Of a stretch of DNA of 64,000 bases, positions 6,544 to 9,661 are shown in pieces. Source of the DNA: a virus. Taxonomy: Duplodnaviria > Caudoviricetes. The stretch lies in the IMG/VR virus record IMGVR_UViG_3300020411_000002. One strand, written 5' to 3'. The position numbers were made by a program, and so were the translations under genes. A model generated the notes under the pieces. It did not search any database, was not told the origin of the DNA, and saw only the letters and a list, made by a program, of their open reading frames with translations. The number at the start of each line of letters is the position of its first letter. Positions within the stretch are counted from its first letter, which is position 1.

Positions 6544-7038
6544 TTAGCGAGGTTTAATCCATAAAGCACCAGCACCAACAGGACCTGGGTCTTCTGTAGT
6601 TATATAGATACTTACTTTACCATCTAATCCATGTTCGCCTTGAGGTCCAGTAGCACCAATAGGTCCCTGCTCCCCTTGCTTTCCTTGCGCACCACGAACA
6701 CCACGTTCTCCAACTGGGCCACGAGGACCTCTACATCCACGTTCACCACGCAATCCATTTTCACCAAGAAGTCCATTAATACCAGCGTTACCAGAAACAC
6801 CTTGAGGCCCTTCTTTACCAGTACCAACATCACTTTGAGTCATAAAGTTATTGATACGTAGAACAGGATAGCCTGGGATGCTTAGCGTAAGAGTACCAGA
6901 CGTATTATCGTAGTAACCTTCTAACGTGTCTGCTACTTCATCATCTGTTACAATAGACAAACCTCTACCAGAAGATTCTACATTACCTACAGTAGAACCA
7001 CCACTAATCATGTTCAAGTTAGCTTTTGTAATAGCCAT
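6544..7038 (-). CDS. Collagen-like fibre chain C (about 22 Gly-X-Y triplets)
   Basis: Uninterrupted GXY run GKEGPQ...GLDGK; N- and C-flanking domains are paralogous to 7051..7686 and 8150..9661. Confidence 0.85.
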   Translation of the reverse strand: MAITKANLNMISGGSTVGNVESSGRGLSIVTDDEVADTLEGYYDNTSGTLTLSIPGYPVLRINNFMTQSDVGTGKEGPQGVSGNAGINGLLGENGLRGERGCRGPRGPVGERGVRGAQGKQGEQGPIGATGPQGEHGLDGKVSIYITTEDPGPVGAGALWIKPR

Positions 7039-7050
7039 AATAAGTCTCTC

Positions 7051-7686
7051 TTAAAATTGGTCTAAGTCATCATCGTACTGACCGATATCTGGATTTACCC
7101 AAATAGAGCCAGGTCCTATGCTAGAGCCAGGGTCTGTACTACTAATAACTATGTTGATGTTTCCAGCAGGGCCTTGCTCTCCACGTGGGCCAGTAGGACC
7201 TGTAGCACCAGTAGGTCCAGTTGGGCCTACATCACCACGCTCACCTTTCTTTCCTTGCAGTCCACGTGGGCCCATAGGTCCAGCACATCCAGCAGGACCT
7301 GGAAGTCCAACTTGTCCATCACGACCATTCTGTCCATCTTCACCACGAGGGCCTGTAGGTCCAATAGGTCCAATACAGCCTTCGTCACCAACTTCTCCAT
7401 CTTTACCATCGCGTCCATCACGACCATCTTCGCCAGCTTCTCCTTGAGGACCTTGCTGACCCTGAGGAATGCTATCGAATGTAGGAAAGCCAGTAATAGC
7501 AATCTCATTACCGCTAGCAAATGTTAGAGTAAGAATGCCGCTTCCTTGGTCATAAAATCCAGCTTCGATTTCGCTGGTGGTGTCAACTGCTTCGCTAGAC
7601 GTAGCAAGCTTTCCGTTTTTGACAACTACACTACTGCCTTCGTCACCTGATGACCGTACCATAGTTACAGGAATTTTTGTAAGCAT
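7051..7686 (-). CDS. Collagen-like fibre chain B (about 33 Gly-X-Y triplets)
   Basis: Uninterrupted GXY run GQQGPQ...GPAGNI; same flanking motifs as the other two chains. Confidence 0.85.
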   Translation of the reverse strand: MLTKIPVTMVRSSGDEGSSVVVKNGKLATSSEAVDTTSEIEAGFYDQGSGILTLTFASGNEIAITGFPTFDSIPQGQQGPQGEAGEDGRDGRDGKDGEVGDEGCIGPIGPTGPRGEDGQNGRDGQVGLPGPAGCAGPMGPRGLQGKKGERGDVGPTGPTGATGPTGPRGEQGPAGNINIVISSTDPGSSIGPGSIWVNPDIGQYDDDLDQF

Positions 7687-7688
7687 AA

Positions 7689-8150
7689 TTAAACCCTGTT
7701 ATGTACTAAAATGCCATTTAGAAAATATGTATCACACATATCAACCTTTAGCTCGAATGTTTGTACACTAACTTCTATAAAAGAAATTGTCTCTACTTGA
7801 AATTGCGTAGAGTGTCCAAACATAACATCACCTTTTTGAATTTGTGGAGGCTTTTTCCATTCCCAAAAATCATTACGCTTGATTAAAATGGGTTGGTCGG
7901 CTACAAAGTGCATCAAGTTTATTTTATAGTATCCACTACGTATAAATATTTCGCGGTCTATAACAGTGCCTTCAATAACTTTTCCTTGAACGTCTTTTGT
8001 AGCCCATTCCATAGCGAACTCTTGATTACCAAATCTAGAACTAGGCATAGCACCTATTCTTAATGCAGTAATCTGATCGCCTACGAATACATCTTGTGTA
8101 TTCTTACTTTTAAGAGTATCTGTTCCTGTAGTAATCCTTTGCTTAATCAT
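7689..8150 (-). CDS. Stand-alone, catalytically degenerate Hint-domain protein
   Basis: Aligns by eye along its whole length with the Hint domain of 8150..9661 (VFVGDQI, YYKIN, PILIKRNDFWEW, IQKGD, DTYFLNGILVHN). No Cys1; the block-B His is replaced by Gln. TAATG stop/start overlap with the upstream gene. Confidence 0.8.
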   Translation of the reverse strand: MIKQRITTGTDTLKSKNTQDVFVGDQITALRIGAMPSSRFGNQEFAMEWATKDVQGKVIEGTVIDREIFIRSGYYKINLMHFVADQPILIKRNDFWEWKKPPQIQKGDVMFGHSTQFQVETISFIEVSVQTFELKVDMCDTYFLNGILVHNRV

Positions 8151-9661
8151 TAGTGCTTAACCGTTTGTGTTGTGTTATGGACAACAATAGGCTCATGTCC
8201 GGCAAAGTAGTTATCGTATGGTTCAACGTCTAGTACGACAACATTGAGATTTTCTTTAACTTGATCGATAGACTTGATTTCAATAACTCCATCTGTACCT
8301 TTAAGAAAGTCACCAACTTTAATGTCAGTCGCATCATACCAACCCCACTGCTGATTCTTTCTAACTAGAACAGGGTGGTCTTGGGTAATACATACGTCAT
8401 TGTTAATCTTCCAATACTGAGTGTAGCTAGCATTGTAAGCAACTCGCGCTGTAGTAGGTACAATCTTCGGATTCTTGAACTCTGTAGTCTTCCAATCTTT
8501 CCAATTTCTTTCGTCTTCGTCTAGCATTCCTGTCGAAGTAAAGGACTGTAGAGTATCGCCTACTTTAACATATTTAGCTCGTTTAGTACTTCCATCCCAC
8601 ATAAGAATTGGAGTATCTTCGTGTACACAACCACCGCCACCAACTATGATAGGACCTCCAGGCTCAGTCTCTTCACTATTATCTCTGCTGTTGTAACCTG
8701 AGAAAGAGAAGCGAATATTCTTGATAGACAAACGTTTATTGTTATCGCCTCTATCTGTAATAACGAGTTCCATCTTACCAGAAAAGCTATAGCTTTGTTG
8801 AGGTTGAATAGTACGTAATGCAGCAATCTTTAGTGAACGTGACGTAGTAGAACCGTCAATAGAAATTCCAGCTTCACGCATACTGTTATCAGTATCGACC
8901 CACTTGTAACTGAAAGGACCTATTCCACCTTCAAAGTTCGTTAATGAAAGAATAGCGTTACCGCCGTAAGAATCATCAGTAACGTGAGCTAGTCTAACAC
9001 TAACATCTGTTACTTGTCCTGACATTGGATCAGCTTCTACTATCGGTGAGGGAAGAGAAGTGCCACTAGGTCGCGCCCAAAGAAAGTAGTTTGAGTCTGG
9101 TGCGTTCTCTCCATAGTATACTGTTTCCGCTGGTTTGATTCCTTGTATACCACGTTCACCAACTATACAGCTAGGCCCAGCAGGTCCAACAGGTCCCATG
9201 TTACCAACGTCACCATCTTCACCAGTGTCTCCACGCAATCCAATAGGACCGGGACACCCCATATATCCAGTAACACCAGTTTCACCATCATTACCATCTA
9301 GACCTTTATTGCCAGCTTCACCAGTAGGTCCAATCGGTCCTTCGCATCCAGTCTTTCCTTTCTTACCATCACGACCAATTCTACCATCACGACCTTTCTT
9401 GCCAGCAGGGCCTTTATCTCCACGAGGACCTTCACCCATCTGACCGAGCGTTAAGAATCCAGACACCTCTACAACTTCACCATTATGTCTGACAAAGTTG
9501 AGTGTGCCTGTTCTCTTGTTGAATCCGATTTGTGCAATAGCTCTTTCGCTAACAGGTTGTTCTGAACTGTATGCTAAACTTTTTAGGGAATCAGTCTTTA
9601 AACTAGTTCCCTCTTTATTCTTGCTAGGTACAAGACTTTTAATGTTAGCTTCTTGTGCCAT
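8150..9661 (-). CDS. Collagen-like fibre chain A with a beta-sandwich domain and a C-terminal Hint domain
   Basis: About 33 GXY triplets, then a globular domain, then GGGG-CVHEDTPI...ITQDHP...LDVEPYDNYF...VVHN-TTQTVKH. Confidence 0.85.
   Translation of the reverse strand: MAQEANIKSLVPSKNKEGTSLKTDSLKSLAYSSEQPVSERAIAQIGFNKRTGTLNFVRHNGEVVEVSGFLTLGQMGEGPRGDKGPAGKKGRDGRIGRDGKKGKTGCEGPIGPTGEAGNKGLDGNDGETGVTGYMGCPGPIGLRGDTGEDGDVGNMGPVGPAGPSCIVGERGIQGIKPAETVYYGENAPDSNYFLWARPSGTSLPSPIVEADPMSGQVTDVSVRLAHVTDDSYGGNAILSLTNFEGGIGPFSYKWVDTDNSMREAGISIDGSTTSRSLKIAALRTIQPQQSYSFSGKMELVITDRGDNNKRLSIKNIRFSFSGYNSRDNSEETEPGGPIIVGGGGCVHEDTPILMWDGSTKRAKYVKVGDTLQSFTSTGMLDEDERNWKDWKTTEFKNPKIVPTTARVAYNASYTQYWKINNDVCITQDHPVLVRKNQQWGWYDATDIKVGDFLKGTDGVIEIKSIDQVKENLNVVVLDVEPYDNYFAGHEPIVVHNTTQTVKH

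Follow-up and report, generated by a model that had tools for sequence, protein, structure and literature searches.

A candidate heterotrimeric collagen fibre encoded by two paralogous genes in the tail module of a jumbo phage

Described collagens and the phage locus

Animal type I collagen has the chain composition [alpha1(I)]2 alpha2(I), and complement C1q is assembled from A, B and C chains encoded by three tandem genes, with A-B and C-C disulfides and a kinked collagen stalk. Gauba and Hartgerink in 2007, and Fallas and Hartgerink in 2012, reportedly designed charge-pair collagen heterotrimers from a basic and an acidic chain. The chain make-up of animal collagens has been reviewed (PMC8968730), and the phage and bacterial collagens that have been characterised are homotrimers (PMC3368898; PMC8968730). 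For example, EPclA-D are collagen-like side tail fibres encoded by prophages of E. coli O157:H7; EPclA was shown by experiment to be a homotrimer, its trimerisation domains being PCoil and PfC, and the word "heterotrimer" is not used in that paper (PMC3368898). Here we describe three tandem paralogous collagen genes, encoding chains A, B and C, in a stretch of 64,000 nucleotides (the window) from the virus record IMGVR_UViG_3300020411_000002 (Duplodnaviria; Caudoviricetes). The sequence patterns and the co-evolution of these chains make it fairly probable that A and B combine in a mixed collagen triple helix, with A·B2 as the likeliest composition; the helix would serve as a tail or baseplate fibre of a jumbo myophage. 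Such a mixed helix would be the first natural heterotrimeric collagen outside animals.

Like the chains of animal type I collagen, A and B are paralogous and equal in length, a 2:1 ratio is proposed here, and a register-setting non-collagenous domain adjoins the helix. Unlike type I collagen, the phage A/B pair has no hydroxyproline machinery in view, its registering domain is N-terminal and only about 75 amino acids long, chain selection is apparently coded by charge pairs, and a head is present on one chain only. There is also no homology with the animal protein beyond Gly-X-Y composition, the matches being purely compositional. A sequence search with B against solved structures accordingly retrieved animal collagens by composition only, and no match covered the N-domain or the cap motif that follows the collagen stretch. 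The locus resembles C1q in its tandem paralogous collagen genes, in a Gly interruption in one stalk chain and in a presumed inter-chain disulfide. However, the three C1q chains are of equal length and each gives a lobe of the gC1q head, whereas the third phage gene is shorter and apparently separate, and the phage head would be a single immunoglobulin-like (Ig-like) domain followed by a Hint-like domain. With the designed heterotrimers the A/B pair would share Y-to-X' axial and lateral salt bridges between chains, and negative design against homotrimers through like-charge contacts. The designed molecules are synthetic 30-mers with hydroxyproline, whereas the phage chains are a natural co-evolving gene pair with helices of about 100 residues, flanking domains and cysteines. 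Finally, EPclA-D are likewise phage fibre proteins with a collagen stalk between non-collagenous domains, but their flanking domains differ from those of A and B and conserved cysteines within the helix are lacking.

Length, cysteines and charges of the collagen chains

All three chains exceeded the cutoff of the Pfam Collagen family (PF01391; 27.2 bits), with 55.5 bits for A, 63.4 for B and 57.7 for C. In profile searches, A matched PHROG 38766, "virion structural protein" (E = 2e-68), and B matched PHROG 8745 (E = 4e-38). The chains have in common a diverged N-domain of about 75 amino acids and the cap motif. A first-pass annotation of this DNA had pointed out the shared N-domain and post-collagen motif; both are present in all three chains, although the versions in A diverge from the motifs of B and C. 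The common spacing between N-domain and helix that it described was recovered, with F-x-T placed 9 residues ahead of the first collagen Gly (Gly1) in A, B and C. Triplet positions number 33 in A (29 triplets, one position with Cys for Gly, and 3 more triplets), 34 in B and 23 in C. The distance from Gly1 to the Pro of the cap motif is 110 residues in A and B and 77 in C, exactly 11 triplets fewer. As paralogous chains of equal helix length and register, A and B thus match each other and C does not. For comparison, loci were gathered from viral contigs, from metagenomes and from contigs that encode some of the approximately 380 cluster representatives identified for the N-domain family. More than 20 related genomes share the triplet counts (29+Cys+3, 34 and 23), a Cys at triplet 10 (Cys10) and the Cys of A at triplet 30 (Cys30), at identities of about 30-50%, a pattern far beyond chance. 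The length lock and Cys10 were also confirmed at the loci of Alexandravirus and Yoloswag phages.

Cys10 occupies the X position in all three chains of the window (GCE in A, GCI in B and GCR in C), a Cys at triplet 20 (Cys20) is restricted to A (GCP) and B (GCA), and every Gly-Cys triplet is followed by GP[IRM]G, all as first reported. The further Cys reported for A does lie at triplet 30, but it is not another Gly-Cys: the Cys takes the place of Gly (CIV), and three regular triplets follow. Cys30 is invariant in all A-type chains. In the related genomes, Gly substitutions are confined to A-type chains and B has no interruption anywhere. A highly conserved GPT-GPT-GxT-GPT-GP block was noted at triplets 27-31 of B (window 7069-7113 region of the alignment); in the aligned register it faces the invariant Gly-to-Cys of A at triplet 30.

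Cys20 covaries between A and B. A and a B-type chain both carry it in the window and in the related loci L009, L012, L014, L108, L110, L114, L115 and L116, and neither chain does in Phage NCTB, L010, L011, L013, L022, L028-30, L035 and all Alexandravirus/Yoloswag loci. Among these genomes, no case with Cys20 in only one of the two chain types was found, and C never carries it. In a maximum-likelihood tree of the 808-amino-acid protein encoded upstream of A, which was used as phylogenetic marker, the Cys20 state changes at least three times on well-supported branches, one change per clade (window/L009 versus NCTB, L012 versus L010, and L014 versus L011/L013). In prospective look-ups, each begun from a chain bearing Cys20, the partner chain had it too in five of five informative cases, the base rate among cluster representatives being about 18% for B-type and about 32% for A-type chains. 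The contigs of L111 and L112, which end before triplet 20 or before the helix of A, stand outside the informative look-ups. In L110, which encodes more than one B-type chain, Cys20 is present in A and in just one of them (Bx). Gene conversion between A and B was considered as an origin of the Cys20 pair and rejected, because the triplets flanking Cys20 differ between A and B. Cys10 is less strict than Cys20. It is missing from A in L035 (L035:4987-5982) and in the cluster representative P0066 and kept in all other A orthologues seen, and it is missing from C in L110 (L110:8482-9003), L114 (L114:5761-6285) and L115 (L115:6481-6984), where the other chains retain it. Such covariation indicates proximity in register or a common role rather than a bond, and the "disulfide-locked" state of the first-pass annotation is a step that we infer.

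The net charges given earlier for the window were reproduced, namely +7 for A, -6 for B and 0 for C over triplets 1-9, and -3 for A and +2 for B over triplets 21-29. In a collagen helix, the inter-strand contacts bring the Y residue of one strand together with X residues of the neighbouring strand, in the same triplet and those after it. A contact score was computed for 13 lineages as opposite-charge minus like-charge pairs between Y(n) and X(n..n+2) of the next strand. The mean was -10.5 for A-A (range +2 to -40), +14.5 for B-B and +5.2 for C-C, C being self-complementary. Cognate A-B pairs reached a mean of +19.9, versus +8.9 for non-cognate pairs between clades, with the maximum at zero register shift, and in 10 of the 13 loci the cognate B was unmatched by any non-cognate B. 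Cognate and non-cognate means were 1.6 and 2.2 for A-C and 2.7 and 1.8 for B-C, and neither pair changed under register shift. Complementarity that favours a mixed helix over homotrimers was thus found for A-B, with no signal for A-C or B-C. A·B2 outscored A2·B in every one of the 13 lineages. In five further lineages, A-A was negative in four, and A scored positively (10 to 16) with at least one B-type chain in all five; in L110, A scored 0 with the Cys20-bearing Bx and 10 with the other B.

The polarity of the pair is inverted in L011 and L013, where A is acidic and B is basic, and the A chains of these loci score negatively with the B chains of other clades. Judged from the sequences, this inversion is a compensatory change. 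In a permutation test that took a single representative from each of 7 clades (5040 permutations), no arrangement but the true A-B pairing attained the observed score (p = 1/5040), and this result was stable over all 36 choices of representatives. The same test gave no signal for A-C (p ~0.56) or B-C (p ~0.57). A correlation of charge density was tried as an artefactual cause of the permutation result and rejected, since a normalised score gave the same p. Both the asymmetry of charge and the Cys20 pair are far more pronounced in the clade of the window than in an Erwinia jumbo phage with chains of the same family.

The position pairs that carry the A-B signal were then resolved, with scores summed over the 13 loci and the excess taken as cognate minus non-cognate. 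The sums were 128 at Y-to-X offset 0 (excess 5.8) and 101 at offset +1 (excess 4.4). They fell to 35 at offset -1 and 30 at offset +2 (excess 0.8 each), to 12 for X-X in the same triplet (excess 1.8) and to -60 for Y-Y in the same triplet (excess 1.3). Within a single triple helix, offsets 0 and +1 correspond to lateral and axial salt bridges. A3 and B3 helices lying side by side would show opposite charges at any pair of positions of the same height; such a pattern is absent, which points to contacts within one helix. Self-repulsion of A extends over offsets 0 to +3, with its maximum at the contact offsets (0 to +2).

Proposed assembly of the fibre and competing explanations

We infer the assembly, stoichiometry, disulfides and virion position of an A/B fibre from the sequence patterns and the co-evolution observed above, and on balance we lean slightly towards a natural register-specific A·B2 or A·B·B' collagen with charge-pair selection, in-helix cysteines and a single Ig-like head followed by a Hint-like domain. 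In this assembly the paralogous N-domains would set a common register, the equal spacing to Gly1 and the 110 residues from Gly1 to the cap Pro being seen in the sequence. Charge would code chain selection, in that the charged blocks of A would repel each other in an A-only helix and the opposite charges of B would match them at the Y(n)-X(n) and Y(n)-X(n+1) inter-strand contacts. Cysteines of the same triplet (10, and also 20 in the lineage of the window) would be adjacent and would probably form inter-chain disulfides once outside the reducing cytoplasm, after lysis. The Gly-to-Cys break at triplet 30, the single Ig-like distal domain and the putative C-terminal Hint-like autoprocessing domain would belong to A only, so that the stalk would display one head, not three. 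This agrees with the earlier proposal that a single chain of the mixed helix bears the distal domain and Hint, which the A/B sequence signals back. In relatives with two B-type genes (L110, L011 and L013), the helix could hold A together with two different B-type chains. C is most likely a separate, shorter fibre, because it has 23 triplets, is self-complementary and does not co-evolve with A or B; it would stand on the same type of N-terminal anchor, probably as a homotrimer.

Structure prediction was examined for an ABB-type complex, one of the trimers put forward in the first-pass annotation. For two B chains with A(1-200), ESMFold2 gave an ipSAE (interaction prediction score from aligned errors) of 0.42, versus 0.00 for the best of three controls, which the tool rates as "weak support". 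In its calibration, 58 of 80 solved complexes and 2 of 110 mismatched pairs reached the mark; only 7 of those 80 did so with a score of 0.60 or lower, as did both of the mismatches that passed. The predicted interface spans residues 74-177 in each of the three chains, N-domain residues among them. The distal piece of A was modelled as a beta-sandwich, with a predicted local distance difference test (pLDDT) score above 90 over approximately residues 38-150 of the piece. Foldseek against the PDB returned no match for this domain at E <= 0.001 and only weak Ig-like rows, and its GGxGPFxYKW motif gave sub-threshold matches to the SprB repeat in Pfam. An Ig-like beta-sandwich does not require three chains, and we therefore counted it in favour of the A/B mixed helix. 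The C-terminus of A matched Pfam Intein_splicing with 29.8 bits, below the cutoff of 35.8. It contains GGGG-Cys345 and His-Asn at 495-496, followed by Thr, and is a putative Hint-like autoprocessing domain.

Several points weigh against an A/B heterotrimer. The evidence for it is computational throughout, the stoichiometry comes from the contact scores alone, and these scores use formal charges only, with an idealised one-residue stagger. The complex prediction passes weakly and cannot separate a heterotrimer from homotrimers, since the model may place any collagen chain in a helix. The sign test on the tree gave p = 0.25; with only three independent pairs significance is unreachable, and we therefore rely on the zero discordance and the prospective look-ups. 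A-A is roughly neutral, not repulsive, in Alexandravirus, the window and L009, and it is +8 in L108; L022 and L014 show no cognate A-B advantage. B-B is positive, so B is self-compatible and B3 homotrimers may also form. The mean self-score of A is -0.32 per triplet, with 6 of 13 A chains below -0.3, and 38 unrelated collagen runs from metagenome loci gave +1.19 per triplet with none below -0.3, but this background was fished with a GRD-rich pattern and is biased to favourable self-contacts. Side chains at X positions of a collagen helix point outwards and are solvent-exposed; if X-position cysteines of the same triplet cannot bridge within a helix, the cysteines favour links between helices. 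Lastly, the N-domain core is repeated in giant single-gene fibres that are presumably homotrimeric, and therefore the module itself does not dictate hetero-assembly.

In an alternative that we regard as unlikely, A, B and C each form homotrimers, and A3 and B3 are bundled in register on the baseplate in the manner of C1q stalks or collagen microfibrils. The bundle would be joined by opposite charge blocks and by inter-helix disulfides through exposed X-position cysteines. Textbook collagen geometry makes solvent-exposed X positions suitable for such links, docking at equivalent sites and at the same height is conceivable given the N-domain and Cys10 common to the paralogues, and the self-scores of B-B and C-C are positive. 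The giant single-gene fibres built of N-domain cores fit this arrangement, as do the characterised prokaryotic and phage collagens, which are all homotrimers (PMC8968730), including EPclA (PMC3368898). However, A-A pairs are neutral to strongly repulsive (down to -40) at exactly the intra-helix contact offsets, and both the A-B complementarity and its lineage-specific excess are limited to Y-to-X offsets 0 and +1, not X-X or Y-Y. Purely lateral attraction between blocks would not yield such offset specificity. The restriction of Gly substitutions to A also argues against bundled homotrimers.

Three independent homotrimers with no association of A and B, which is the default for phage fibres, appear improbable. 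The patterns would then result from a common third partner, such as a baseplate socket or a chaperone, or from folding constraints, and B and C, which have no distal domain, could be simple struts. However, a common partner would select similar, not opposite, charges at equal positions of A and B. The inverted polarity of L011/L013 and the outcome of the permutation test (1/5040) favour direct contact between A and B, and the strict co-occurrence of Cys20 is a further point against independence.

The model of the first-pass annotation, a 1:1:1 A:B:C register-defined heterotrimer locked by cysteines at triplets 10 and 20, is very improbable: the spacing from N-domain to Gly1 and Cys10 are common to all three chains, the charges over triplets 1-9 in the window sum to about zero, Cys20 in A and B only would make exactly one disulfide, and in Alexandravirus-like lineages cyclic A-B-C registers roughly equal A·B2 in score over triplets 1-23, but C falls short of A and B by 11 triplets in every genome, with a cap that would be positioned a third of the way along the helix, never has Cys20, has lost Cys10 in L110, L114 and L115 where A and B keep it, is self-complementary, and shows with A or B only near-zero, shift-flat scores that are no better for cognate than for shuffled pairs and thus neither register- nor lineage-specific. 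The heterotrimer idea is therefore supported for A and B, on the basis of equal length, Cys20 covariation, contact-specific charge co-evolution and self-repulsion of A, and finds no support for C as a member, as the caveat on chain length in the same annotation had rightly anticipated.

Gene neighbourhood, relatives and implications

The closest deposited genome is that of Phage NCTB, in which A is 48% identical, followed, at about 30%, by the Alexandravirus and Yoloswagvirus jumbo phages of Erwinia/Dickeya. Gene order is the same in NCTB and in the Alexandravirus/Yoloswagvirus phages. In NCTB, Yoloswag, AD1 and SNUABM phages the orthologues carry the annotation tail fiber or virion structural protein and lie beside tail and baseplate genes. 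The locus is a tail-fibre module of a jumbo phage related to NCTB and Alexandravirus/Yoloswagvirus. According to the list of open reading frames (ORFs) and the annotation of neighbouring genes in relatives, the collagen trio is housed in a tail/baseplate gene module on the minus strand. Coordinates in Table 1 refer to the whole stretch.

Table 1. Positions of the collagen genes, their domains and cysteines, and adjacent genes (aa, amino acids)
Feature	Position	Strand	Basis or remark
Tail protein, 1600 aa	12128-16930	-	ORF
Conserved protein upstream of A, 808 aa	9665-12091	-	PHROG 21488; weak tail-collar-fibre N-terminus
Chain A, 503 aa	8150-9661	-	ORF, Pfam, PHROG
A N-domain	9431-9661	-	
A collagen	9134-9430	-	29 triplets, Cys for Gly at triplet 30, then 3 triplets
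A cap motif	9068-9133	-	
A Ig-like distal domain (predicted)	~8630-9067	-	Predicted model, weak Ig-like matches
A Hint-like domain (putative)	8174-8629	-	Cys345 to His-Asn 495-496; then 7-residue tail
A Cys106	9344-9346	-	X position of triplet 10
A Cys136	9254-9256	-	X position of triplet 20; never found without Cys20 in a B-type chain
A Cys165	9167-9169	-	In place of triplet-30 Gly; invariant across A-type chains
Stand-alone Hint-like ORF between A and B, 153 aa	7689-8150	-	Outside collagen helix
Chain B, 211 aa	7051-7686	-	Start codon 2 nucleotides past stop of 153-aa ORF
B N-domain	7462-7686	-	
B collagen	7156-7461	-	34 triplets without interruption
B cap motif	7090-7155	-	Then acidic tail of 12 residues
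B Cys104	7375-7377	-	X position of triplet 10
B Cys134	7285-7287	-	X position of triplet 20; covaries with A Cys136
Chain C, 164 aa	6544-7038	-	ORF, Pfam
C N-domain	6820-7038	-	
C collagen	6613-6819	-	23 triplets
C cap motif	6547-6612	-	
C Cys102	6733-6735	-	X position of triplet 10; gone in C orthologues of L110, L114, L115
Downstream neighbour, 1367 aa	2431-6534	-	Calx-beta domain and C-terminal Hint-like domain
Fourth paralogue in relatives	L002:14748-15569; L011:11965-12624; L014:12080-12598		Also looked at in L115

The start of the 153-amino-acid Hint-like ORF overlaps the stop of A (TAATG). In profile searches this ORF matched the C-terminal part of PHROG 38766; it occurs in the window and in NCTB and not in Alexandravirus. 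The C-terminus of the 1367-amino-acid protein downstream of C likewise has a Gly6-Cys ... His-Asn Hint-like domain, with PT-HINT at 23.7 bits, below the cutoff. In NCTB and Yoloswag the same large "intein domain protein" comes after the collagen trio.

Several arrangements of the trio were observed in relatives. Some encode two or three B-type chains of 33-34 triplets (L110:6453-8467; L011:5992-7787; L013:4153-9428), of which some have large distal domains of 356-920 amino acids. In these relatives the A-type chain is short (about 250 amino acids), has a longer N-terminus and is headless, suggesting that the head-bearing chain varies between lineages. At the metagenomic locus L111 (L111:1507-3644), the A-type chain stops past the cap, and the distal region and a GGGGG-Cys Hint-like domain are separate downstream ORFs. 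In L108, L110, L114 and L115, ORFs of 140-190 amino acids, recognised by size and position, lie directly upstream of A; in L112 such an ORF, whose sequence was read, lies between A and B. The public gene call at L108:6420-7115 is an ORF of 379 amino acids on the opposite strand, and the plus-strand ORF is a B-type chain with 34 triplets, Cys10 and Cys20. This is probably a mis-annotation, because the collagen repeat is open on both strands. The fourth paralogue lies a few kb downstream and has 24-25 triplets, Cys10 and its own C-terminal domain ending in G..M.WG. Contact scoring of C against this paralogue in three lineages gave no signal in either direction.

Giant proteins of 2000-4600 amino acids (P0001-P0005 and others) also contain the core of the N-domain (about 35 residues, G.FD...G.L.L...NG....I.GF), as a repeat unit with up to 18 copies. 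Therefore, the "N-domain" is one unit of a widespread fibre-shaft repeat. A megablast search of 12 kb against a phage collection gave no match, a metagenome scan recovered mostly generic collagen genes and only three loci of the family, and a literature search for the A/B/C protein family found no paper.

The production of defined collagen heterotrimers by recombinant means is a recognised bottleneck. If the favoured assembly of A and B is correct, a phage gene pair self-sorts into a mixed helix in the bacterial cytoplasm without hydroxyproline, and could serve directly as a scaffold for producing heterotrimeric collagens recombinantly. Such a pair would mirror in nature the design rules for synthetic heterotrimers and would put the charge-pair rules to an evolutionary test. 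For the phage, an A/B fibre would explain how a single asymmetric receptor-binding head is placed on a three-fold stalk. AD1 and its kin are known as "hairy Myoviridae", whose hair proteins are unassigned (PMC6143709), and the A/B helix would assign a structure to conserved fibre genes of these hairy jumbo myophages.

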